A stretch of DNA of 64,000 bases from an uncultured Bdellovibrionales bacterium (GCA_964384235.1 CAYLJX010000003.1:72389-136388), one strand, 5' to 3'; counted from the stretch's first letter, positions 47,864-64,000 are shown. Numbers and translations: made by a program. Notes: a model not told the origin generated them from the letters alone.

Positions 47864-47985
47864 GGATGTTGGTTTTTCCTCTGTAAAAAATTATACCACG
47901 TCTCCTCTGTTCCGCAATCTTGCAATCATCTTATTTCCCGTGCTATCAAACAACTCAGGAGGCTTATCTTTTTTTCCAGGTTGAC

Positions 47986-49887
47986 ATGAAACGCCTCCTC
48001 CTCGTGATACTTTTTGACAGTCTCTTTCTTCCTCTTCCGGTTCTGGCGGACACCGTCCCTACCATCATCATAAGCGAGGTCCAGACGAGCGGTGCGTCGA
48101 GCGATGACGAATTCATCGAGCTCTACAATCCCGGGAGCAGCACGGTGAATCTCAGCGACTACGCCCTCCGTCGCAAAACCAAGGGTGACACGAGCGCCCT
48201 GGGCACCTCCGTCAAATCCTTTTCCTCAAGCGATACCATCGGGGCGAAGGAGTATTTCCTCTGGGCCAATTCCAAGAGCGTCTTCAAGGACTTGGCCGAC
48301 GCGACGACCACGGCGAGCCTCACCGATGACAACAGTCTCGCTCTCGTAGGCAAGAATAACGTGATAGTCGACACGGTCACGTACGGCTCGGGACACGCCG
48401 CGCCGTTCTCCCCGACCGTCTCGTCCAATCCTGACAAGAAACAGTCGCTCGTCCGCGACCTTGATACGCTCGAGTGGCAAAAATCCTCGGCACCGACCCC
48501 GACAAACGGTCTCGGCGTGACGTACGAGGAACCGACCCCTTCGACTCCTTCGACGGGCTCAGGGCAAGCAGGCTCAGGGCAAGTAGGCTCGGGATCTTCG
48601 ACTCCTACCACTTCTTCGGCCGTCCGTCTCAACGAACTTCTCCCCAACCCCAAGGAGAAAGGCGAGAAAAACGAGTACATCGAACTCTACAATAGCGGGA
48701 GCGACGAAGTCTCACTCGCCAACTGGACCCTCCGTGACGCATCCAAGACCGGCAAGTACGTTTTTCCCTCAACGTCATCCATCGCCGGCCACGGCTACCT
48801 CGTCATCACGCGCGAGACGTCCGGCCTCTCGCTCAACAATTCCGACGAGACTGTTTCCCTCTTCGATGCGAGCGGCACCCTCGTCTCTTCCGTCCGCTAC
48901 GACAAGACCAAGGAAAACATCTCGCTCAATTACTCCGAAAAAGGATGGCGCGGGAGCAAGTTCCTCACGCCCGGCGCGGAGAACATCCTAAATTCTCTCC
49001 CCGACACCAAGGAGCGCATCCCCAAGAAAGGCTATGCCAAGATGCCCGTGGAATTCCACGCCAAAGGCAAGGACAAAGACGGCGACAAACTCAAGTACAC
49101 CTGGGACTTCGGCGACGGACACAAGAGTTACAAACGAGACACCGCCCATACCTACAAGAAGAAAGGCAAGTACACGATCCGTCTCACCGTGACCGACGGT
49201 TCGGAGGACACTGTCGAGACCAAGAAGATCAAGATCGAGAAATACGAATATCCCGATCTCAAGATCACGACCCTCTCACCGAACCCCGCCGGAAGCGACA
49301 CGGAAAACGAGTGGATCGTCATCGAAAACAAAGGCAAGAAAAAAGTGAATCTCAAGGATTTCGCCATCGCGACCGGCTGGAAATCCCTCGCGAACCACCC
49401 TATCCGAAGCGACCTGGTCATCAAGCCAGGGAAAACCCTCAAGCTTTCACGGAAAGACGCGCTCTTCACCCTTCCCAACAAGCAGGGCAAGATAGAACTC
49501 CGTGCCCCCGACGGTAAGACACTCCAGAAGGTCAAGTACCAACTCGCCGCGTCCGTGAAAGAGAATACCGTCTATCACAAGGAAAAGAATCTTCCGTGGG
49601 CCTGGAAACAGGTTGAGAATGTTTCCTCTCCTCAAAATGCTCCCTCCCTCACGGCGAAGAAAGAAACTTCATCCCCCGCTCCAGAAAAAAAAGAAGAGGC
49701 TCAGCAAACAAAGAAAGAAGAGGTTCAACCGGAAACCTCTCCGACAGAACAACCTTCTATCCCTCCGACTGAAACAGCACCGACCCTTCCCATCGAACAG
49801 GAACAACCTTCTTCCTTTACTCACATTCTGGAAACAATTTTCTCATCTCTAAACGGACTCTTAAACAGACTGTTCGGTGTTCAGTAA
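47986..49887 (+). CDS. Secreted multidomain protein: three lamin-tail domains (LTD), a PKD domain and a C-terminal low-complexity tail
   Basis: Signal peptide MKRLLLVILFDSLFLPLPVLA; repeated ISEV..DEFIELYN / NEYIELYN / NEWIVIEN LTD signatures; WDFGDGHKSY..YTIRLTVTDG PKD motif. Confidence 0.8.
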   Translation: MKRLLLVILFDSLFLPLPVLADTVPTIIISEVQTSGASSDDEFIELYNPGSSTVNLSDYALRRKTKGDTSALGTSVKSFSSSDTIGAKEYFLWANSKSVFKDLADATTTASLTDDNSLALVGKNNVIVDTVTYGSGHAAPFSPTVSSNPDKKQSLVRDLDTLEWQKSSAPTPTNGLGVTYEEPTPSTPSTGSGQAGSGQVGSGSSTPTTSSAVRLNELLPNPKEKGEKNEYIELYNSGSDEVSLANWTLRDASKTGKYVFPSTSSIAGHGYLVITRETSGLSLNNSDETVSLFDASGTLVSSVRYDKTKENISLNYSEKGWRGSKFLTPGAENILNSLPDTKERIPKKGYAKMPVEFHAKGKDKDGDKLKYTWDFGDGHKSYKRDTAHTYKKKGKYTIRLTVTDGSEDTVETKKIKIEKYEYPDLKITTLSPNPAGSDTENEWIVIENKGKKKVNLKDFAIATGWKSLANHPIRSDLVIKPGKTLKLSRKDALFTLPNKQGKIELRAPDGKTLQKVKYQLAASVKENTVYHKEKNLPWAWKQVENVSSPQNAPSLTAKKETSSPAPEKKEEAQQTKKEEVQPETSPTEQPSIPPTETAPTLPIEQEQPSSFTHILETIFSSLNGLLNRLFGVQ

Positions 49888-49925
49888 AAAAGCTACGAAC
49901 CTTTCCTTTCGAACGGAAGGCAAAG

Positions 49926-50047
49926 ATCCCTTTTCGGAGTCTTGAAGATCCGGAAGCGGGCATGGTTCCGACTGACAAGGAGGAGAGCGAAGGAGCTTCA
50001 GGAGGGAGCCCGTACGCCGGACGGGCGAGCGACTCCGAAAAGGGAGG
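49926..50047. ncRNA. Structured RNA element E, copy 2
   Basis: ~85% identical to copy 1, with GGUUGC/GCAACC replaced by GCCCGU/ACGGGC (both pair). Confidence 0.5.
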
Positions 50048-50142
50048 CTTTGCCGGGAGAGAGAATAAAGCACTAGAAAACTTTTCGTAAAAAACAAACG
50101 CCCGGAAGAAGACTTCTCTTCCGAGCGATACAACAGTGCGAC

Positions 50143-52679: not shown

Positions 52680-53489
52680 TCACACTGCGATCGCGAGTTC
52701 CTTCAAGGTGTCGATCCAGCGTTCATTCACGATCCGCTGGAATCCCTCTCTCGTTGGGTGGAGCTCGTTGTCCCAGTCTTCGAGGTAGTTCGGGGAAACA
52801 AGACATCCGCGTGAATTGACCAAGTAGATTCGTTTGCCCGGATCCGCAAACTGCGAAAACTCCTCGGCGAGGCGGTCGATGAGGATGCGACAGATCTTCC
52901 GGCGGAGATCGGGGTCGTTCGGAACCTGTCGTTCGTCCATGGCCGGAGCGAGCCACGGCCCCGTTATCTTCAACGTCTCAAGTTTGAAGCCCCGTCCATC
53001 CGGGATGGGATAGTCGTAGGAGTGGAGGATGACGGCCGGGTGAAGCCCCTGTTTTCCGGCGGCACGCCAGACTTGATGGGTCATGGCGCCAAGGGCGGTA
53101 CCCAGTCGTCCCATCAGGGCATCCATCGCCGCCTCCTCGATACAGTCTTCCGGCGTTTGCGCTTTGGAGCAATTCCTTTTCAGCCCAAGCCCGTAATCGA
53201 CCGCATCGTTTCCTGCACCACCGATTCGGACAAACGAATAGTAGGGCATGTTCTCTGGTCGCAGTTCCCAAGCGAACTGTTTCGCGTACCTGCCGAAGAC
53301 GTACTCCTCCAGCTTGGCGCCGATGTACCCGAGCGACTGGATCTGACGATACGGATCCTGGACGCGCGGATGGGTCGCAATCGCGTAGAGGAGGTTGCTC
53401 TTCGGATACCAGAACCAGGAGTCTCCGATTGCCAGAAGTGCGGGAAATTCGCCGGGAAGCCACTGCTCGCCGGGCGCATAGATTTTCAT
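52680..53489 (-). CDS. GDSW-motif SGNH-hydrolase-like protein, paralog 1
   Basis: LLAIGDSWFWY (block I Ser), GGAGND (block III), WDNELHP (block V His); paralogous to 62572..63420. Confidence 0.65.
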   Translation of the reverse strand: MKIYAPGEQWLPGEFPALLAIGDSWFWYPKSNLLYAIATHPRVQDPYRQIQSLGYIGAKLEEYVFGRYAKQFAWELRPENMPYYSFVRIGGAGNDAVDYGLGLKRNCSKAQTPEDCIEEAAMDALMGRLGTALGAMTHQVWRAAGKQGLHPAVILHSYDYPIPDGRGFKLETLKITGPWLAPAMDERQVPNDPDLRRKICRILIDRLAEEFSQFADPGKRIYLVNSRGCLVSPNYLEDWDNELHPTREGFQRIVNERWIDTLKELAIAV

Positions 53490-53664: not shown

Positions 53665-55068
53665 TCACTTTGAAGTCAATCCCGCTTCCGTCATGAACTT
53701 GACGATCCGGGCCGCTGTGAGTGCTTCGTTGTAACCAAGCCTATCCTGAAACCGATTGAAGCCTTGGACGTGAATGCCGATAACCGCCCCGTCTGATAGA
53801 TCAAAAATTGGGCTGCCCGAGTTTCCGCCAGACGTGTTGGCCTTGTGCACGAACATTCCCTCATCAGTGACCTTTTTTCCCCCAGTAAAGCCACCTGAGA
53901 GCCGCTTGAACGGAAACTGGGGCGCCAACTTGTCGGGTGTTCTGAAGAACTCCACTTGTTCCGCAACGGTCATATCGTCGGGAGGTCCCGGATAGCCCAT
54001 GACCGCCACAATCATGTTCCCGGCGTATGCAGCATTAGGTCTTTCCGCAAGCGTGAGGCTTTTCGGAAACTGCTGATCGGTCGAAGTAAGGAGTATGGCC
54101 ATGTCATCTCGAGAACCTTTAGGCACTGCGTGGACTGCATTCAGAAAATATGAACGCTCCTTGTTGGGCTCCTCGCAAGCATTGTCCTTACCCAATGGGT
54201 ACTCGACGTCAAAATAGACCTTCGCTCCAGGGCGAATCTTCCAAAGATTCTTCTGTTCATCATACTGAGCAATACTTTTGAGCACGTGTAGGTTTGTAAT
54301 CAGATGATTCGATCCCACGACGAAGCCTGATCCTGCTGGACGATCGTCAAGCATTATCAGACCTACGCTTCTCCCGGCCCGAACGAGTGCGTCTTTATGA
54401 GATGAAATTGTCTTACTCCACTCCAATGGGTCTTTGGGCGCCCAGAGTTGCTCCTTGCAGACAAGGAAATAGGGATTTGAGAGCGCTGCAAACGACTCAG
54501 CAACAGCCGGCGATATTCCCTTAATCTGACCCAAAACAAATTCTCGTGCCCGTTGCTTCGTTGAAATTGCCGTGTTGATAGCGGAGAGCGCCACATTGTT
54601 GGCTGGCGTCTTCGGCTCGACGGCGTTAAGCTGCGCCAGCTCTACCTGCAACTGATCGATCTCCGATTCGATTACAGCGAGTAGCGCTTGTCTCTGCGCG
54701 GGACTTTGTTGTTCCAGCGATTCTTCCAAAGACTGAGGCGTCACGGTCCCGGAACGCGATGCCGGTGTCTTCGACAGATCACCGTTGGAACCAACGAGTG
54801 GTGCGCCAGGCAGCTTTCGAGGAATCGACTGGCTGACTAGTCGAAGTTCCACATCGCTTATTTCGCGGGCACGACTAACGGATTCCACGGTGGCGCGCCT
54901 GAGGGCGTCGCCTAAGAGGTCGCCAAAGAGATCTCCCGCTTGGACGCTCGACGTTCCTAAGGCAATCGAGCACAGTAGCAGTAGACCTTTCTCAAACCTA
55001 GGACGATTGATGTTGCGATTCATTTCGGTGGCCGGCGCGCAGCTAGTTTGTTCGTACCCGTTTTTCAT
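53665..55068 (-). CDS. Secreted trypsin-like (S1, chymotrypsin-fold) serine protease with an N-terminal coiled-coil region
   Basis: Signal peptide; ..GSGFVVGSNHLITNLHV.. (His), ..DMAILL.. (Asp), ..GNSGSPIFD.. (Ser). Confidence 0.8.
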   Translation of the reverse strand: MKNGYEQTSCAPATEMNRNINRPRFEKGLLLLCSIALGTSSVQAGDLFGDLLGDALRRATVESVSRAREISDVELRLVSQSIPRKLPGAPLVGSNGDLSKTPASRSGTVTPQSLEESLEQQSPAQRQALLAVIESEIDQLQVELAQLNAVEPKTPANNVALSAINTAISTKQRAREFVLGQIKGISPAVAESFAALSNPYFLVCKEQLWAPKDPLEWSKTISSHKDALVRAGRSVGLIMLDDRPAGSGFVVGSNHLITNLHVLKSIAQYDEQKNLWKIRPGAKVYFDVEYPLGKDNACEEPNKERSYFLNAVHAVPKGSRDDMAILLTSTDQQFPKSLTLAERPNAAYAGNMIVAVMGYPGPPDDMTVAEQVEFFRTPDKLAPQFPFKRLSGGFTGGKKVTDEGMFVHKANTSGGNSGSPIFDLSDGAVIGIHVQGFNRFQDRLGYNEALTAARIVKFMTEAGLTSK

Positions 55069-56607: not shown

Positions 56608-57174
56608 TCACACCATCCCTCGCTCCGCCAGACTCACCACGTCCGTCCCCGCCACCACGAAGTGATCGAGGACCTTCACATCGACAAGTCCAAGCGCCTG
56701 CTTCAAGGCACTCGTCAGCAGCTCATCCGCCCGGCTCGGTTCGGAAACGCCAGAAGGATGGTTGTGGGCGAAGATGAGAGCGGCAGCGTTGTGCCGGAGG
56801 GCCCGCTTGACGATCTCCCTTGGATACACCGACGTCTGGCTCAAGGTGCCTCGGAAGAGTTCTTCCGAAGCGATGAGGCGGTTCTGGGCATCCAAGAAGA
56901 GCGTGAGGAACGACTCGTACTCCTGAGCAACGAAATATGCCAGGAGGTAGCGCTTCACGTGCTCCGGCGAGGTGAGGAGGATCTCCTCTCGCCGCAGGTC
57001 TTCGTAGAGGAGCCGCGTGACCAACTCCTTGGCGACCTGAAGTCGCCGCTGTGCGCTCGTCCTCGCTTCGCCCGCAAAGAGCGGCACGAGACTTCCCTGA
57101 TACAACTTCTCTGCCGCCTTCGCCCCTATGAGCCTCTCCAGCAACTCGCGGTCGCTGGCCTTCTGCATGTCCAT
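56608..57174 (-). CDS. radC: RadC-like JAB-domain protein
   Basis: N-terminal helix-hairpin-helix-like region and C-terminal ..[16 protein letters not shown].. JAMM motif. Confidence 0.85.
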
Positions 57175-57311
57175 GGCAATGGTCTCCTTCTAGAGTAAAG
57201 AACCAATTCCATCGTCATGCATGCGGCATCTCTCGCGTAGGCTTGGAAACGTGCCAAGCTGACACGTTCTCCCGTCTCCGCCCAGGAGCGTCTCTCCCCT
57301 ACCGTGGGAAG

Positions 57312-58505
57312 ATGGACTTCTCTCACGATATCGCGCTCTTCGCCCGGACCAATGCCAGGCGAAGCTTCCAGCCCTTCGGCCTCCGTCAGGCCGACCGCCT
57401 GTTTCACCTGTATGCCATAGGGAAGACGGGAACGGGCAAGTCGACCCTCCTCGAGACGCTCGCCCTTCAGGACATGCGCGCGGGCCGCGGATTGGCCGTC
57501 ATCGATCCCCATGGCGACTTGGTGCTACGCCTCAAGAAGGCGATGCCGCCCTCGCGCCGAGACGATCTGCTTTTCTTCGACGTCCCGGATGTCTCCCAAG
57601 CCTTCGGCTACAACCCGCTGCGCAAGGTGCGGCCCGACAAGATTCCCCTGGCCGCCTCGGGACTCCTGGAGGCCTTCAAGAAGCTCTGGACGGATGCCTG
57701 GGGCGTACGCATGGAGCATGTCCTGCGCAATGCTCTCTTCGCGCTCCTCGAATACGGAGAGGCGACCCTTCCGGACATCCTTCGCCTCATGACGGACAAC
57801 GCCTTCCGATACCGCGTGTCAGCGACGCTCACCAACGAACAGGTGAAGGCCTTCTGGCAGAACGAGTTCCCCAAGTACCACCCTCGCTACCGCCAGGAGA
57901 GCATCGCTCCCATCCAGAACAAGGTCGGCGCCTTCCTGGCCGATCCCAGGCTCTACCGGATCTTCACGGCTCCTCCCGTCGATCTGCGTTTCCGCAGAGT
58001 CATGGACGAGGGGAAGATCCTCCTCGTCAATCTCTCCAAGGGACAACTCGGCGAAGACAGCGCCTCGCTCCTCGGGGCTCTCCTCGTCACGACGCTCTCC
58101 TTGGCGGCCTTCTCCCGGGCGGATATGCCGGAAGCGGAGCGGAAGCCTTTCTTCATCTTCGTCGACGAATTTCAGTCGTTCACGACCCTTTCGGTGGCCG
58201 GGATGATCTCGGAATTGCGTAAGTACAACGTGGGGCTCGTCCTCGCCAACCAGCACCTCCACCAGCTCGAGCCCGATGTCCGGCACGCGGTCCTGGGGAA
58301 CGTGGGAACGCTCGTCGTCTTCCGGGTCGGCCCTGAGGATGCCCGCTTCCTCGCCCATGAGTTCGAGGGAAGCTTCTCGCCCTTCGACCTCATGAGCCTC
58401 GCCAACCATGACATCTACCTTCGCCTCATAATCGACGGGACTCCCAGCCCGCCCTTCAGCGCGACCACCATCAAGCCAGATGATCTTGATCGCTTGAGGA
58501 TGTGA
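57312..58505 (+). CDS. TrwB/TraD (type IV coupling protein)-like P-loop ATPase of the FtsK-HerA superfamily, soluble form
   Basis: Walker A YAIGKTGTGKSTLLETL followed by VIDPHGD (compare TrwB GATGTGKSVLL...VIVDPNGD); Walker B FFIFVDEFQSF; ..VGLVLANQHLHQL.. sensor; no N-terminal TMs. Confidence 0.75.
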   Translation: MDFSHDIALFARTNARRSFQPFGLRQADRLFHLYAIGKTGTGKSTLLETLALQDMRAGRGLAVIDPHGDLVLRLKKAMPPSRRDDLLFFDVPDVSQAFGYNPLRKVRPDKIPLAASGLLEAFKKLWTDAWGVRMEHVLRNALFALLEYGEATLPDILRLMTDNAFRYRVSATLTNEQVKAFWQNEFPKYHPRYRQESIAPIQNKVGAFLADPRLYRIFTAPPVDLRFRRVMDEGKILLVNLSKGQLGEDSASLLGALLVTTLSLAAFSRADMPEAERKPFFIFVDEFQSFTTLSVAGMISELRKYNVGLVLANQHLHQLEPDVRHAVLGNVGTLVVFRVGPEDARFLAHEFEGSFSPFDLMSLANHDIYLRLIIDGTPSPPFSATTIKPDDLDRLRM

Positions 58506-58551
58506 GGCGCATACTCTCATGCGCTTTCCATAGGTTTCAGAGGGGGGGGAC

Positions 58552-59064
58552 ATGGGACACGCCAAGCCGACGGAGATCTTGTCGCACTGGAACACCCGCG
58601 TCGACGGCATGCAGCAGTCGTCCCACGAGTTTTACGGAGCGGTCGAACGCACCCTCGATACGCATAGTCTCAAGGACTACAAGACAGAGCGCGTGAACAT
58701 CTCGGAAGGCGGCATCTTCTCCTCGAAGCGCGAGTACCTCCAGGTGCGCCGCGCCGACATCGTCTTCCACATCTGCGCTGCGCCGTATGGCAACGGCTTC
58801 TTCCTCTCCTGGTGGCTCGGACGGATCGAGTCGGGCTTCTGGGCCTGGATCTCCGACATTCCGGTGATCGGCATGCTCGCGCAGAATTTCTTGAAACCCC
58901 TCACCTACTACAAGCTCGACACCGCCGCGATGTTCCAAGGCGTGGTCCATTCCGTCGTCCTCGAAGTCCTCGACGGCCTGACGACGGAGAAGGGCATCCG
59001 GGCGCTGGCTGAGAGCGAACGGAGGCCCGTCATGCGCGACTTCTTCGCCCGCCTCGGAGGCTAA
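58552..59064 (+). CDS. Hypothetical protein (170 aa) between the two ATPases
   Basis: Protein-like ORF with one Trp-rich hydrophobic segment. Confidence 0.45.
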   Translation: MGHAKPTEILSHWNTRVDGMQQSSHEFYGAVERTLDTHSLKDYKTERVNISEGGIFSSKREYLQVRRADIVFHICAAPYGNGFFLSWWLGRIESGFWAWISDIPVIGMLAQNFLKPLTYYKLDTAAMFQGVVHSVVLEVLDGLTTEKGIRALAESERRPVMRDFFARLGG

Positions 59065-59079
59065 CGCCGGTCTCCGAGC

Positions 59080-62000
59080 ATGTCCGGCCTCTCGCCTGCG
59101 GAAATCATCACCACGAGCTTCTATGCGTGGGAGGTACGCGGGCGCGGGTGGCAGGTAGCGGACTATCCCGTCTGCCTTGAGCCGCCGTTTCGGCATTGCT
59201 TCGTCCTGCCCGATCTCGTCGCGGAAACGAAGCCGATCGATGACGGAAAACGGCCGACGTTCCTCAGTTCCGTGGTCGAGGGCCTGCGGAGCGCCTTCGC
59301 GCTCGACGCCACCCCTGCGCCCGAGCCCGCCCCACCGTACGAGGAACCAGCCCCCTATCCGGCACTTGCGTCCGGACCGCTCACCGCGTTTTGCGTGACG
59401 GTGCCGATGGATCACAAGAGCCATCCGGAAACGACAATCCGCCTTCTCGTCGCGCTGTCGACCTGCTGCTTCCCCGTGTCCCTCGAACTCATCGGCTGCG
59501 AAGGCCAGGTCATCATCCAACTGGTCTGCGCCGACACCGACCAGGCGCATGTGGCCGCGCAGTGCCTCGCCTACCTTCCCGACGCTGCGGTCATCGAAAC
59601 CGAGGACCTCCTTGCGAGCGTCTGGGATCGACGGCGGGAGCACGCCGTCGTCGATTTCGGGCTCTCTCAGGAATTCTTTCTGCCGTTTGATGGACTGAAG
59701 AGCCAGAAGCTCGACCCGTACCTCTCCCTTGTTCCCTCCCTCGCCAGGGCGGATCGAGACGAGGCGATCCTCCTACAGGTCCTCTTCCAAGGCGTCCAGA
59801 ATCCGTGGGGCAAGGCTATCCGCGACGCCCTCGATGATGGCCAGGGCGGTTCTGTGTTCGCGGACGCCCCAGCATTTCCCCGGCTGGCCGATGAGAAGCT
59901 GAAGACCTCCCTCTTTGCCGTCTCGGTCCGTGTCGCCGCACAGGCACAGGAGGCGGAACGAGCGTGGCACTTGGCCCGTTCGACCGGCGCCTTTTTCCTC
60001 CAATTGGGCCGACCCGGAGCCAATGAACTCCTCCCGCTTGAGAACGACGGCTACCGAGAGGATCTTCATGTCGAAGCCATCCTCACGCGGCAGTCGTACC
60101 GCCTTGGGATGATCCTCTCGGCCGACGAGTTGGCGGCGCTCGCCCATCTTCCCGATGCCGCGGTCCGTCATCCGTCCCTCACGCGGGAGGAGCGGCGGAC
60201 GAAGCCTCTTCCCGTCGAAGCCTCCGGACATCCCCATGTCCTCGGCGAAAACCAGCACCGCGGGAAGATGTCCGTCGCGTCGCTCAGTGATGGGCAGCGG
60301 CTCCAGCACACCTGGATAGTCGGCGCCTCCGGGACGGGAAAGTCGACGCTTCTCCTGAACCTCATCACTGAGGACATTCGGCTCGGTCATGGTGTCGCGG
60401 TGCTGGATCCGCACGGCGACCTGATCGACGACATCTTGGCGCGGGTGCCAGACAGCCGCACGAGCGATGTCATCGTCTTCGACCCGAGCGATACTGAGTG
60501 GCCCATCGGATTCAATATCTTCTCAGCCGGAAGCGAGGGCGAGCGGGCGCTCTTGGCTGCCGATCTCGTCGGGATCTTCCGGCGGTTCTCGACATCTTGG
60601 GGCGACACCATGAGCGCGGTGCTCGGGAACGCGGTCCTCGCGATCCTCGAGCACCCGCAGGGTGGGACGCTGCTCGACCTCAGGCGGCTCCTCGTCGATG
60701 AGCGCTTCCGCCGCGCGTACCTGGAGGACGTGGCGGACGAGGAGGTCGCCTTCTTCTGGTCGCGCGAGTACCCCGTGATCGGCTCACGTTCGATCGGCCC
60801 GATCCTGACCCGGCTTGACACCTTCCTGCGGCCCAAGGTCATTCGGCATATCGTCGGACAGCCGGATGGGAAGCTCCATTTCTCCGACGTCATGGCGTCG
60901 AAGCGCATCTTTCTCGCGAAGCTCTCCCATGGCCTCATCGGCGAGGAGAATGCCTACCTCCTCGGCAGCCTCATCGTGGGAAAGTTTCTCGGACTCGCGC
61001 TCGCGCGGCAGCAGCTCGCGAAGGATGAACGCGCCGCCTTCTTCCTGTATGCCGACGAGTTTCAGCACTTCCTCACGCCCTCCATGGAAACGCTGCTCAC
61101 GGCGGCGCGAAAGTACGCGCTTGGGGCAACGCTCGCCCATCAGACGATGGCGCAGCTCCGGGACTCGCCCAAGGTGGAAGGCGCGCTTCTCGGCAACGCC
61201 TACACGCGCATCGTCTTCCGAACCGGGGAAAGCGATGCGCGGCAGCTGGCCGAGGGGTTTTCCTTCTTTGAGGGGCGCGACATCCACGGTCTGGGACGGG
61301 GCGAGGCGATCGCCCGGCTCGGATCGAGCGGAAATGACTTCAACCTGAAAACGCTGCCGCTCCCCGGCGTGCCGCCTGGGGCGGAGGAGCGGCGCTCCCA
61401 GATCATCTTCCGCTCGCGCGAGCGCTACGGGACGCCGATCGAAGCGCTGCGGGCGCTCCTCGGGGCACGGTACAGAGCAAGCGAGGAACCGGCCGAAGCG
61501 AAGCCGAGGCCGCCGCTCGAGGAGGCACCGCCCGCGCTCTCGGGTGCGGGAGAGCCGATCGCCGCTTCCTGTGAGACACCACGGGCAAGCGTTCCGGAAC
61601 CAAAGACCGGTGAGCAACTGATGGCGCGCCGGGTACCGATCAATGTCGCAGCGGTCACCCCGGGACGGGGCGGGCAGGAGCACAAATACCTCCAGCACCT
61701 CGTGAAACGCTTGGCCGAAGAGCGCGGTTTCCGCGCCACGATTGAAGAGGCCGCGGGAGATGGCCGGGCAGACGTGGTACTGAGCAAGAGTACGCAGCGA
61801 ATCGCCTGCGAGATCTCAGTGACGACGGACCATATCCACGAGGAAGAGAACTTGAGGAAGTGCCTCGCGGCCGGATTCGAACAGATCGTCTTTGTCGTAC
61901 CCGACCGGAAACGAAGGGAGAAACTGAAAGGACATTTTCAGGAGATTGCCGGAATCGACTCGTTGGCGGTGATATCGACGGAGGAGATCGTCGCGTACCT

Positions 62001-62160
62001 CGACGGGCTGGATACCGGATCGGCCGTGGCCGAATCGACCGTGCGAGGCTACAAGGTGAAAGTCACGCGGCAGACGGTCTCGCCAGAGGAGCTGGCCGGA
62101 AGGCGCTCGGCCATCGCCGAGGTGATCGCCCGGTCGCTCCTCAAACACAAGGACGTTTGA
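59080..62160 (+). CDS. Large TrwB/HerA-like ATPase fused to an unknown N-terminal domain and a C-terminal Hjc/restriction-endonuclease-like (PD-(D/E)xK fold) domain
   Basis: Walker A WIVGASGTGKSTLLLNL..VLDPHGD, Walker B FFLYADEFQHF, paralogous to 57312..58505; the C-terminus ..LVKRLAEERGFRATIE..GDGRADVVL..RIACEISVT resembles the Hjc ..KGFAVVR..PDIIA..IEVKS pattern. Confidence 0.75.
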   Translation: MSGLSPAEIITTSFYAWEVRGRGWQVADYPVCLEPPFRHCFVLPDLVAETKPIDDGKRPTFLSSVVEGLRSAFALDATPAPEPAPPYEEPAPYPALASGPLTAFCVTVPMDHKSHPETTIRLLVALSTCCFPVSLELIGCEGQVIIQLVCADTDQAHVAAQCLAYLPDAAVIETEDLLASVWDRRREHAVVDFGLSQEFFLPFDGLKSQKLDPYLSLVPSLARADRDEAILLQVLFQGVQNPWGKAIRDALDDGQGGSVFADAPAFPRLADEKLKTSLFAVSVRVAAQAQEAERAWHLARSTGAFFLQLGRPGANELLPLENDGYREDLHVEAILTRQSYRLGMILSADELAALAHLPDAAVRHPSLTREERRTKPLPVEASGHPHVLGENQHRGKMSVASLSDGQRLQHTWIVGASGTGKSTLLLNLITEDIRLGHGVAVLDPHGDLIDDILARVPDSRTSDVIVFDPSDTEWPIGFNIFSAGSEGERALLAADLVGIFRRFSTSWGDTMSAVLGNAVLAILEHPQGGTLLDLRRLLVDERFRRAYLEDVADEEVAFFWSREYPVIGSRSIGPILTRLDTFLRPKVIRHIVGQPDGKLHFSDVMASKRIFLAKLSHGLIGEENAYLLGSLIVGKFLGLALARQQLAKDERAAFFLYADEFQHFLTPSMETLLTAARKYALGATLAHQTMAQLRDSPKVEGALLGNAYTRIVFRTGESDARQLAEGFSFFEGRDIHGLGRGEAIARLGSSGNDFNLKTLPLPGVPPGAEERRSQIIFRSRERYGTPIEALRALLGARYRASEEPAEAKPRPPLEEAPPALSGAGEPIAASCETPRASVPEPKTGEQLMARRVPINVAAVTPGRGGQEHKYLQHLVKRLAEERGFRATIEEAAGDGRADVVLSKSTQRIACEISVTTDHIHEEENLRKCLAAGFEQIVFVVPDRKRREKLKGHFQEIAGIDSLAVISTEEIVAYLDGLDTGSAVAESTVRGYKVKVTRQTVSPEELAGRRSAIAEVIARSLLKHKDV

Positions 62161-62571
62161 TAGCGACTCGCGGATCGGACGGCTGGCAAAGAAGTTTCAT
62201 TGAAGATCCTTTCTCTCGCATTGACGGGCACTGCGTCTTTGGCAGGACGGGCAGTGGCCAATGTCTTGGCCGCCATTGCCGCTCAGATCCATCAAGCAGA
62301 ACGGCACAGTCCCGCCTCGAGGAGCTATGTGCGTGATCTTTCGGTACTACAACGAAGGATCCGTTACCTCCACGTTGGCGCCGCTTGCTGCCAGCACTGC
62401 CCAAGAAGCGTGAATCCCATGGCAGGCGACAACGGTCCGTCAAGTTCGAAAGCATTTTTTATAGACCACGATCGTTTCCTGTTCAATAGATCGAATGCCA
62501 GATACCACAAGGCATGCGAGAGCCATATGCTGTTCGTCCAACAGCCTCGGCGTTCATTGGAAGGTCCGCCC

Positions 62572-63420
62572 ATGCCGCAAGCCATCGTCCTTACGCCGTC
62601 GCAACTGGAAAATCCCGACCTCGGGCAACCGCATCGGTGGGAGTTCTTCGACCGACATTACCTGGCCGAAGGAGATTCGTGGTTCACTTTGGCAGCGCTC
62701 CCCGGCGGAAACCTTCTCCAGGAGCTGCATCTACAGCGATCGTCACTGGTTATCAATACCGCCTCCCCGGGAGACACGCTCTCCCATATCGTCGAATGGC
62801 GCCAAAACCGCCCGTTTGTAAAGCTACTGTCCGAACGCAAGTTTGCACAAAAATGGGATGGGGTGCTCCTGAGCGCGGGCGGCAATGACCTCATTGATGC
62901 CGCAATTTCTCGAGACGGCATCCTCCGCCGTCCGAGCCCGACGGCAACCACCGCAGGTGAGTGCATTCACGATGAGAATCTTGAATTATTGAAACGCCAT
63001 CTGTCGTTCCATCTTGAACAGATCATAGAACTCCGCGACGCTCGGAAGAGCCCCAACCAGGGCATACCGGTCTTTCTCCACACGTACGACTATCCCACTG
63101 CGAGGCCGGCGCCCGCGAAGCTCGTTGGCGTGGTAGGCGTTTCCGGACCGTGGCTGCATCGCGCGTACACAGAACACCATATCCCCGATGCATTATGGTC
63201 ACCTTTGACAGAGCATCTGATCGACTGGCTGGCCAGATTGCTTCAGGAACTGAAGCTTCCAAATGTAACCGTTATCGATACGAGAGGGACACTCGAGCGA
63301 GCTGCTGCGGGAACAACTGGAGACAGCGGTGACTGGCTCAACGAGATCCATGCGAATCAAGGCGGCCGGAAGAAGCTTGCGAAACGGTGGGCGCAGGACT
63401 TGCATCGCATTGTCGGATAG
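62572..63420 (+). CDS. GDSW-motif SGNH-hydrolase-like protein, paralog 2
   Basis: YLAEGDSWFT, SAGGNDL, HTYDYP, GPWL, WLNEIHAN, parallel to paralog 1; start taken at MPQAIV with a GGAAGG Shine-Dalgarno. Confidence 0.65.
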   Translation: MPQAIVLTPSQLENPDLGQPHRWEFFDRHYLAEGDSWFTLAALPGGNLLQELHLQRSSLVINTASPGDTLSHIVEWRQNRPFVKLLSERKFAQKWDGVLLSAGGNDLIDAAISRDGILRRPSPTATTAGECIHDENLELLKRHLSFHLEQIIELRDARKSPNQGIPVFLHTYDYPTARPAPAKLVGVVGVSGPWLHRAYTEHHIPDALWSPLTEHLIDWLARLLQELKLPNVTVIDTRGTLERAAAGTTGDSGDWLNEIHANQGGRKKLAKRWAQDLHRIVG

Positions 63421-63945: not shown

Positions 63946-64000
63946 TCTCTTGACCCAGAACAACGCACCTCAAAGCGGTTCGTGGAACTGCATGCGTTGG

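Follow-up and report, generated by a model that had tools for sequence, protein, structure and literature searches.

Here we describe P0001, a gene of 1026 codons within a 64,000-nucleotide stretch of DNA assigned to an uncultured Bdellovibrionales bacterium (GCA_964384235.1 CAYLJX010000003.1:72389-136388; the whole stretch is hereafter called the window, and positions are counted from its first nucleotide). P0001 is a real gene, and its product is a DNA motor of the type found in secretion systems, fused to a nuclease fold like that of restriction enzymes. Together with a small gene directly upstream, and in many cases a free-standing ATPase gene, it forms a module that we tentatively read as one for the processing or translocation of mobile-element DNA, a reading to which we give somewhat less than an even chance. 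The family is large and widespread and travels on integrating mobile elements that are often inserted in comM. It is already catalogued yet uncharacterised, either as a domain of unknown function (DUF) or under the misleading name of a “type IV secretion DNA-binding” protein.

P0001 is a single ATG-initiated open reading frame (ORF) at 59080-62160 on the plus strand. More than 100 proteins of 1000-1040 aa align to 99-100% of its length with 44-68% identity and E = 0, and therefore the gene, its frame and its start codon are real. The division into an N-terminal domain, an ATPase and a C-terminal domain, as drawn in the initial annotation, is borne out by the ORF and by these full-length homologues, and the parts of the protein are laid out as follows.

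59080..62160, plus strand: P0001, the large subunit, with a predicted VirB4-type N-terminal domain, a TrwB-like ATPase, a Pro/Ala-rich linker and a predicted PD-(D/E)xK-fold C-terminal domain.
59080..60273, plus strand: N-terminal domain, aa 1-398, from an AF2 model matched to TrwK/VirB4 by Foldseek and VIA-align.
60274..61449, plus strand: TrwB/VirD4-type P-loop ATPase domain, aa ~399-790, from Pfam, a PDB profile and the Walker residues.
61450..61659, plus strand: variable Pro/Ala/Glu-rich linker, aa ~791-860, with no consensus in a 37-sequence alignment.
61660..62157, plus strand: predicted PD-(D/E)xK-fold domain, aa 861-~980, followed by a conserved beta-hairpin/helix tail with the motif V-R-G-Y-K-V-K, from AF2, Foldseek and VIA-align.

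The assignment of the central domain to the TrwB/HerA superfamily, made already on first inspection, was upheld by Pfam scores above the respective cut-offs (TrwB_AAD_bind, 40.6 bits against 20.5; T4SS-DNA_transf, 28.7 against 20.1; TraG-D_C, 23.3 against 22) and by intact Walker motifs, with Walker A GASGTGKST at residues 415-423 and Walker B YADEFQ at 655-660. A PDB profile search with this domain returned TrwB as the best sequence match (1.9e-9). In the 37-sequence alignment, where column identity averages 56% across phyla, residues G418, G420, K421, S422, D659 and E660 are invariant. Pfam gave nothing meaningful for residues 740-860, which span the linker, and in one related locus (L103) a break within the linker divides the gene into proteins of 799 and 178 aa.

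The N-terminal ~400 residues had been described as matching nothing recognisable, and indeed no model in our local copy of Pfam matched residues 1-395. The predicted structure overturns this description. The AF2 model of residues 1-398 (pLDDT 87.8, pTM 0.83) was matched by Foldseek to TrwK/VirB4 of the R388 type IV secretion system (7o42; 1.1e-5), and VIA-align placed 242 of its residues onto residues 33-423 of 7o42_A with a Z of 15.0 and a root-mean-square deviation of 3.4 A. The second-best VIA-align match was the ESX-3 chain 6lar_G (Z 7.9), which may be EccE3. No HAS-barrel is present at the N-terminus of P0001, where the fold is VirB4-like, and the Z of 15.0 indicates that the first ~800 aa are VirB4-like in architecture and not HerA-like. 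According to precomputed hits, homologues of P0001 at 44-68% identity carry PF26449 (DUF8128), and in the literature that we searched there was no paper naming DUF8128. The extreme N-terminus has a conserved motif made of F14, W17, E18 and R20-G-R-G-W24. Direct reading of the sequence found no hydrophobic segment in the first 100 residues, and the top 19-residue hydropathy window starts at residue 122, within helix and strand elements of the modelled domain.

At the other end of the protein, an AF2 model of residues 852-1026, built from the 37-sequence alignment and with a mean pLDDT of 81, agrees with the Hjc/Mrr-like, PD-(D/E)xK-type core that had been suspected there. Its secondary-structure elements follow the order H-E-E-E-H-E, that is, an alpha-beta-beta-beta-alpha-beta core. 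Foldseek returned AF1548 (4.9e-5), followed by EcoT38I, the R2 endonuclease domain, Can2, Hjc and NucS, and most of the top VIA-align matches were likewise PD-(D/E)xK-fold proteins, the list including AF1548 (1y88_A, Z 11.1), Can2 (10.0), NucS (9.6), the Upx nuclease domain (9.5), Cdn1 (9.3), FokI (8.9), NucC (7.7) and Hjc (7.5). At the level of Pfam no family reached its cut-off over this domain, with Mrr_cat (PF04471) at 17.7 bits and E 0.004 against a cut-off of 21 bits, and PDDEXK_9 at 13.9 bits against 25.5. Matches of this part in the Atlas all fall within the PD-(D/E)xK clan and, scoring below 0.9, are leads only. Short proteins that match the C-terminal domain alone turned out to be fragments or split forms of the P0001 family and have no Pfam annotation, and hhalign comparison of the domain with the neighbour families Replic_Relax, PDDEXK_1, SWIM, c4, c12 and c13 gave probabilities of at most 0.3%.

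The putative active site of this domain is an unusual one. P0001 shares with the known PD-(D/E)xK nucleases (AF1548/Mrr-like, Can2, NucS, FokI and Hjc) the core fold, the acidic residue D898 before strand 2 and E911 in strand 3; however, the family carries S, C, T or G at the position of the canonical lysine. Serine in place of this lysine had been noted from the sequence and is confirmed in P0001 as E911-I912-S913. Among 82 full-length members from more than 15 phyla, position 913 is S in 50, C in 14, T in 8 and G in 5, and it is never K; the canonical catalytic D...(D/E)-x-K motif is thus incomplete, with D898 and E911 present and the lysine missing. A second difference from the known nucleases is a set of extra invariant or near-invariant residues, namely H868, Q872, E889, E921, N924, K927 and C928. 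In the same 82 members H868, E889, D898, E921 and C928 are invariant, E911, K927 and Q872 are each kept in 81, and N924 is kept in 80. The initial annotation had suggested, on account of the serine, that the domain could be a DNA-binding module rather than an active nuclease. The substitution itself stands, and the suggestion is weakened by the conservation of H868, E889, D898, E911, E921 and K927, since a decayed active site would hardly keep a near-invariant acidic cluster together with K927 across 82 members. In the PD-(D/E)xK superfamily, catalytic residues are known to have migrated. To judge from these residue patterns, a non-canonical active site, in which K927 in the helix after strand 3 replaces the canonical lysine, is more likely than a dead domain, and the tethered nuclease is probably active.

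Members of the family occur in at least 553 matching stretches of a one-genome-per-species collection, in more than 15 phyla. The hosts include Pseudomonadota, Bdellovibrionales, Acidobacteriota, Binatia, Planctomycetota, Bacteroidota, Verrucomicrobiota and Gemmatimonadota, and further Chloroflexota, Bacillota, Nitrospirota-like bacteria, Actinomycetota, Sumerlaeota, Eisenbacteria and several Patescibacteria. A profile of the N-terminal domain matches 2,709 clusters (50% identity) at E <= 0.001, and among the best 150 of these, 102 are full length and 100 of the 102 retain the same C-terminal domain, which argues that the architecture is essentially fixed, without effector swapping. A few variants were seen, such as P0369 (1124 aa) and P0227 (209 aa), where an excisionase-type HTH_17 domain follows the nuclease-like domain, and P0394 (1227 aa), which has the N-terminal domain and the ATPase and no detectable nuclease domain.

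We surveyed the surroundings of the large gene in 87 loci, 80 from the one-genome-per-species collection by an alignment-based scan and the others metagenomic, and clustered the ORFs within +/-10 kb. In the window, the features upstream of P0001 that recur in such loci, together with an inverted repeat, are the following.

58552..59064, plus strand: the small partner P0003, 170 aa, with its stop codon 15 nt before the start of the large gene and no match to a known family.
57312..58505, plus strand: the free-standing TrwB-like ATPase P0002, with an ATG at 57312 and an ORF open from a TTG at 57243; Pfam TrwB_AAD_bind 41.6 bits.
57249..57267, plus strand: the inverted repeat ACGTGCC-N5-GACACGT, in the divergent region between the RadC-like and ATPase genes.
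56608..57174, minus strand: a RadC-like JAB-domain gene, Pfam RadC 1.6e-43, divergent from the ATPase gene.

A gene for a protein of ~170-190 aa lies directly upstream of the large gene and on the same strand in 79 of the 87 loci by clustering, or 81 by a hidden Markov model, with a median gap of -7 bp. P0003 itself has no match in Pfam, PADLOC or NCBIfam, and the Atlas gives hypothetical-protein clusters only. The small proteins have a conserved core with the motifs C-A-A-P-F-G and F-F-x-S-W-W-L, and after the latter comes a variable insert that is strongly hydrophobic and of membrane-hairpin length in 46 of 80 of them; the insert of P0003 is a short, amphipathic version. A complex prediction for the N-terminal domain with the small protein (ipSAE 0.00) gave no verdict and is evidence neither way.

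P0002 is 38% identical to residues 402-752 of P0001 over 357 aa (E 5e-65), in line with the paralogy of the two ATPases proposed at the outset, and it has no N-terminal membrane segment. In four of five large genomes there is just one other TrwB-like match, at a distance of 1-16 kb from the large gene. The arrangement RadC / ATPase / small / large recurs in the closest relatives (loci L105, L106, L001, L011 and L103). The inverted repeat between RadC and the ATPase is unique in the window, with 0 matches in 100 shuffles; its exact pattern was not found in the other loci, and at this position five related elements have a looser GTGC...GCAC palindrome. The repeat could serve as an operator or as a site of DNA processing.

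Two paralogues of the motor are encoded elsewhere in the same genome. One, of 825 aa (G000:C3:29012-31489(-); L093:9013-11490), aligns to columns 130-793 of the P0001 family with a probability of 100% and E 2.7e-75, and consists of an N-terminal hydrophobic helix, a VirB4-like N-terminal domain and an ATPase, with no nuclease domain. The other (G000:C1:115306-117333(+); L094:10307-12334) is a 675-aa TrwB-like ATPase with a treble-clef zinc finger. Matches to both types were found in 40 of 40 Moranbacteria relatives, and both look like core genes of the lineage. The fused helix of the 825-aa paralogue supports membrane association of the family, and the VirB4-like ATPases thus appear to be membrane-associated either through such a helix or, as we infer for P0001, through the small partner.

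How does this module relate to the systems already known? Like VirB4/TrwK of R388 (7o42), P0001 begins with ~400 aa of the same predicted fold and continues into a TrwB-like RecA-type ATPase. Its gene follows a small gene, the product of which often carries a membrane-hairpin-like insert, in an order that seems to parallel that of virB3 and virB4, where VirB3 is the small membrane partner of VirB4. However, P0001 scores only 20.5 bits with TIGR00929 against a cut-off of 643.1 and has no CagE_TrbE_VirB or AAA_10 match at E <= 0.1, it carries the additional C-terminal PD-(D/E)xK domain, no other type IV secretion system (T4SS) genes lie nearby, and the small partner has no detectable similarity to Pfam families. 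With TrwB/VirD4 (1e9r) the module shares the ATPase, for which it is the best sequence match in P0001, and P0002 is coupling-protein-like in size, but both P0001 and P0002 lack the N-terminal transmembrane anchor. The scores of P0001 with coupling-protein models are also far below the cut-offs (TIGR03743, 34.6 bits against 366; TIGR03754, 25.6 against 647; TIGR02759, 18.7 against 521), neither a relaxase nor a mating-channel gene is found in the window, and Replic_Relax occurs in only 7 of the 87 loci. Further precedents are the Streptomyces TraB-type translocases, membrane-associated FtsK-like motors that act singly, recognise DNA through a C-terminal domain and move element DNA, and the MOB_C relaxases, which are restriction-endonuclease-like and represent PD-(D/E)xK enzymes acting as conjugative nickases; yet no sequence relationship was found, hhalign of the C-terminal domain against the Replic_Relax and PDDEXK_1 neighbour families giving nothing, and the hosts of the P0001 family are mostly unicellular diderm bacteria.

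The closest description we found is that of ‘EccE3-HerA’ in type III-A CoCoNuT systems, an ATPase of the FtsK/HerA superfamily whose EccE3-like N-terminus precedes a VirB4-like ATPase domain and whose operon also encodes a small partner protein (Bell et al., eLife 2024, PMC11090510). It was compared by description only, and the ESX-3 chain that came second for the N-terminal domain of P0001 may point the same way. It differs in that no nuclease domain is mentioned for it and that it belongs to McrBC-type CoCoNuT operons (PMC11090510). HerA-DUF4297, SIR2-HerA and the MAD7-MAD8 pair of MADS similarly couple a ring ATPase of the same superfamily to a nuclease or another effector, but the N-terminal domain of P0001 is VirB4-like instead of a HAS-barrel and its nuclease is fused instead of separate. 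PADLOC returned a weak mad8 match limited to the ATPase (P0001, 44.5 bits, 3.4e-12; P0002, 65.1 bits, 1.9e-18), with no match for P0003 or the downstream gene P0004 and no other mad genes present, and its HerA models reached P0001 only at E 0.0088-0.033 over ~40 residues around the P-loop. The defence-system reading, for which the initial annotation had pointed to a likeness to HerA-DUF4297 and helicase-nuclease architectures, is not established, PADLOC offering only this weak P-loop match to mad8.

The genomic setting across the 87 loci is that of integrating mobile elements. Large serine recombinases occur in 45 loci, typically right after the large gene (median +92 bp, with 38 of 50 on the same strand), and next to the recombinase or at the opposite end of the element there are fragments of comM (Mg-chelatase-like; 12 + 7 loci), from which we conclude that insertion is into comM. 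The module often stands at the end of the element, adjoining the comM junction. Tyrosine integrases were found in 8 loci, RadC in 12, ArdC in 5, Replic_Relax in 7 and a DnaG-type primase in 6, and at least one mobile-element hallmark is present in 63. Loci L076 and L087 carry, all on one strand and with short ORFs in between, the series ATPase, Replic_Relax, primase, RadC/ArdC, small, large and recombinase. A Pfam census of the 139 nearest neighbours was led by Resolvase/Recombinase (15/13), followed by RadC (6) and assorted DNA methyltransferases, of which there are ~10-12. In the PADLOC scan of the same 139, the top 25 families were methyltransferase models except PglX and PD-T4-6, with two members each. 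The mad2 matches among them proved to be diverse methyltransferases and were rejected as a link to MADS. In the metagenomic locus L004 the small and large pair lies among E1/JAB, PRTase-CE with ORC-CDC6-like, and SIR2_2 genes, and in the likewise metagenomic locus L009 among MethyltransfD12, HATPase_c, AAA_15 and HicAB genes.

Within a sample of 301 genomes from one phylum, five carry the large gene, five carry close relatives (57-68%) of the comM-associated recombinase and two carry both; in the genomes that have the recombinase and not the large gene, other genes adjoin the recombinase. Pairwise identities of the large protein and its neighbours correlate with Spearman coefficients of 0.27-0.45, which are too noisy to show linkage. 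In the plasmid and phage collections only ATPase-domain-level matches were found, one of which, on a Sulfitobacter plasmid, is a P0002-like ATPase beside a recombinase and is broken up by transposases. None of 50,697 phages carries a full-length member of the family. The initial annotation had named homologues in plasmid partition or conjugation operons as a sign against a DNA-targeting role. This sign is present in part: the homologues do lie on integrative mobile elements, which are not canonical conjugation operons, for no mating-channel genes were found.

Our preferred, though still tentative, reading takes P0001 as the large subunit of a DNA motor made of two or three proteins, which derives from type IV secretion ATPases and resides on integrative mobile elements. 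We favor it because the architecture is fixed, the ATPases pair in a VirB4/VirD4-like way, relaxase-like, primase, ArdC and RadC genes are collinear with the module, and a putative membrane partner accompanies it. In such a motor, the small protein would tether the ring of the large ATPase to the inner membrane face, much as VirB3 does for VirB4, and the large ATPase would pump DNA. The flexibly linked nuclease would nick or cut the DNA being pumped, D898 and E911 presumably binding the metal and K927 serving for the canonical lysine. The substrate would be the element's own DNA, during its transfer or establishment, and the free-standing ATPase could act as a coupling-protein-like partner. 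A bolder version, which we consider improbable, is that the small protein, the ATPase-nuclease and the free-standing ATPase together make up a minimal self-sufficient apparatus for DNA export or transfer, with the PD-(D/E)xK domain as its nickase. If this were true, such an apparatus would be spreading comM-targeting serine-recombinase elements over more than 15 phyla, including the ultra-small Patescibacteria, without a conventional mating channel. Several observations count against our preferred reading. A P0002-like ATPase lies within +/-10 kb in only 37 of the 87 loci. VirB6/8/9/10, pilin and lytic transglycosylase families are absent from the 139 nearest neighbours and the Pfam-annotated loci, and a possible helper system is also hard to find, with an AAA_10/VirB4-type match above cut-off missing in four of the five large host genomes. 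Not one of 72,556 plasmids carries a full-length member of the family. The module is facultative within its own element family, the recombinase occurring without it in three of five genomes, and canonical VirB4 proteins are not known to contact DNA.

A serious rival ranks below the DNA-processing reading, and we regard it as somewhat doubtful: the small and large genes, with or without the ATPase, could be cargo for anti-phage or anti-plasmid defence or for exclusion, in which a membrane-associated ATPase would detect or reel in DNA and the PD-(D/E)xK domain would degrade it. The combination of ATPase and nuclease fits this idea, as do the defence nucleases among the matches of the C-terminal model (Can2, Z 10.0; Upx, 9.5; Cdn1, 9.3; NucC, 7.7), the weak mad8 match of P0001 (44.5 bits), the sporadic and horizontally spread distribution, the facultative presence within the element family, the methyltransferases (~10-12 among the 139 nearest neighbours) and the clear defence neighbourhoods of L004 and L009. 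MAD7-MAD8 is moreover an ATPase-nuclease module required for defence (PMC13662399). On the other hand, no defence-family match extends outside the P-loop region, and the effector domain shows no polymorphism (100 of 102 clusters have the same one), an extent of conservation across phyla that conflict proteins rarely show. Recombinases, RadC and ArdC head the neighbour census, and in some elements the module is collinear with Replic_Relax, primase and ArdC.

A different role inside the cell, namely in the directionality of excision and integration, in copy resolution or segregation, or as a replication initiator or helicase with a nicking domain, seems to us possible but improbable. As part of such a role, the translocase might deliver the serine recombinase to its sites or activate it there, by analogy with FtsK and XerCD, which set the precedent of a translocase activating a recombinase. 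The recombinase gene typically follows at once in the same orientation (median +92 bp, 38 of 50), the module is often at the element end beside the comM junction, and one variant has the C-terminal HTH_17 extension. However, many loci have tyrosine integrases or lie far from any recombinase, the recombinase clade occurs without the module, a membrane-anchoring partner is not obviously needed for this task, and the correlation of identities with the recombinase is moderate and noisy. Finally, that P0001 is an ordinary conjugative T4SS component, either a VirB4 or a coupling protein, can be regarded as essentially excluded. Homologues are named ‘type IV secretion system DNA-binding domain-containing protein’, the T4SS-DNA_transf and TrwB_AAD_bind families of Pfam do match, and the N-terminal fold is VirB4-like, but the NCBIfam models for coupling proteins and VirB4 score ~20-35 bits against cut-offs of 366-647, the N-terminal membrane anchor is missing, no other T4SS genes occur in the loci examined, no plasmid carries a full-length member, and the C-terminal nuclease domain matched no canonical T4SS ATPase model. 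We know of no canonical T4SS ATPase with such a C-terminal nuclease domain.

In the papers returned by our limited searches, the combination of a VirB4-type domain, a tethered, non-canonical PD-(D/E)xK domain and an obligate small partner on comM-targeting elements is not described. Should the module indeed move element DNA, it would represent a very reduced relative of the conjugation machinery, through which genes could flow into and out of Patescibacteria, and should the defence reading hold, it would be a new class of membrane-associated ATPase-nuclease.

Turning to the genome in which the window lies, its RpoB is 88-91% identical to sequences of Candidatus Moranbacteria, and the assembly, of 0.99 Mb on 10 contigs, has a completeness score of 100%. 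Searches of 40 Moranbacteria relatives found P0001 and P0003 in one (G021) and P0004 in none. Synteny with these congeners ends at about 49.6 kb of the window; from ~49900 to its end at 64000, and on to the end of the contig (L092), there is no synteny with them. The GC content is 0.63-0.65 over the large gene, and elsewhere in the window it is roughly 0.50-0.61. The rarity among the 40 relatives, the synteny break and the GC contrast argue that the cassette was acquired horizontally and lies inside an accessory island of this ~1-Mb Moranbacteria genome. The copy in the one positive relative (G021:C6:10500-25500; L112) belongs to a divergent, decayed element with an ATPase fragment, a primase-like gene, ArdC, a RadC fragment and the small gene, in which the large gene is broken into three pieces (422, 305 and 187 aa) and the serine recombinase is truncated; this suggests a separate acquisition followed by decay.

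The same block, with RadC on the minus strand followed by the ATPase, small and large genes, is present in the closest relatives of the cassette (66-68% identity, on metagenomic contigs) and in metagenome-assembled genomes of Accumulibacter and Bdellovibrionales, and a serine recombinase stands 5-9 kb upstream of it in the two closest relatives and in the Bdellovibrionales locus. The cassette's own contig, which ends 7.8 kb past the window, has no recombinase, and Pfam scans found no relaxase in the window. comM is intact elsewhere in this genome. Another contig (G000:C6:1-15000; L113) carries a serine recombinase cut by the contig end, a second serine recombinase and homologues of c4, HTH_c6 and c13, three neighbour families that recur in related elements, and it may be the missing part of the island or a second element.

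The exact stretch 57200-62200 was found in full in at least 14 DNA runs from ~10 studies (2019-2025) of activated sludge, wastewater and bioreactors, some of which may be the source sample, and the strain with the cassette appears to be widespread in such plants. Four RNA libraries from three studies contain short contigs, 100% identical, over parts of P0002, P0003, P0001 and P0004; these are a weak hint of transcription, with DNA carry-over as a possible source, and stretches of the locus that have no such contigs (e.g., 59214-60116) are not interpretable. A promoter scan gave nothing, terminator-like sites were fewer than in shuffled sequences, and Rfam had no match in the window.

Several other genes share the island. 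P0004, at 62200-63420 on the plus strand, and a gene at 52680-53489 on the minus strand encode paralogous GDSL-like hydrolases that are 31% identical, and a P0004-like gene is also located near the module in the Bdellovibrionales locus L011. A trypsin-like peptidase gene lies at 53665-55068 on the minus strand, accompanied by several genes with no family match. At the left edge of the island, a sequence of ~150 nt (49905-50062) folds into a long hairpin (minimum free energy -73.2 kcal/mol, z -5.15) and recurs at 78-95% identity in at least six further positions on contigs C1 and C2 of this genome. Rfam has no match for it, and it might represent a structured RNA, a small mobile element or a repeat element. 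Just inside the syntenic region, at 47920-49887 on the plus strand, a gene encodes a protein of 655 aa with one PKD domain and three lamin-tail domains, which is probably one of the surface proteins of this lineage.

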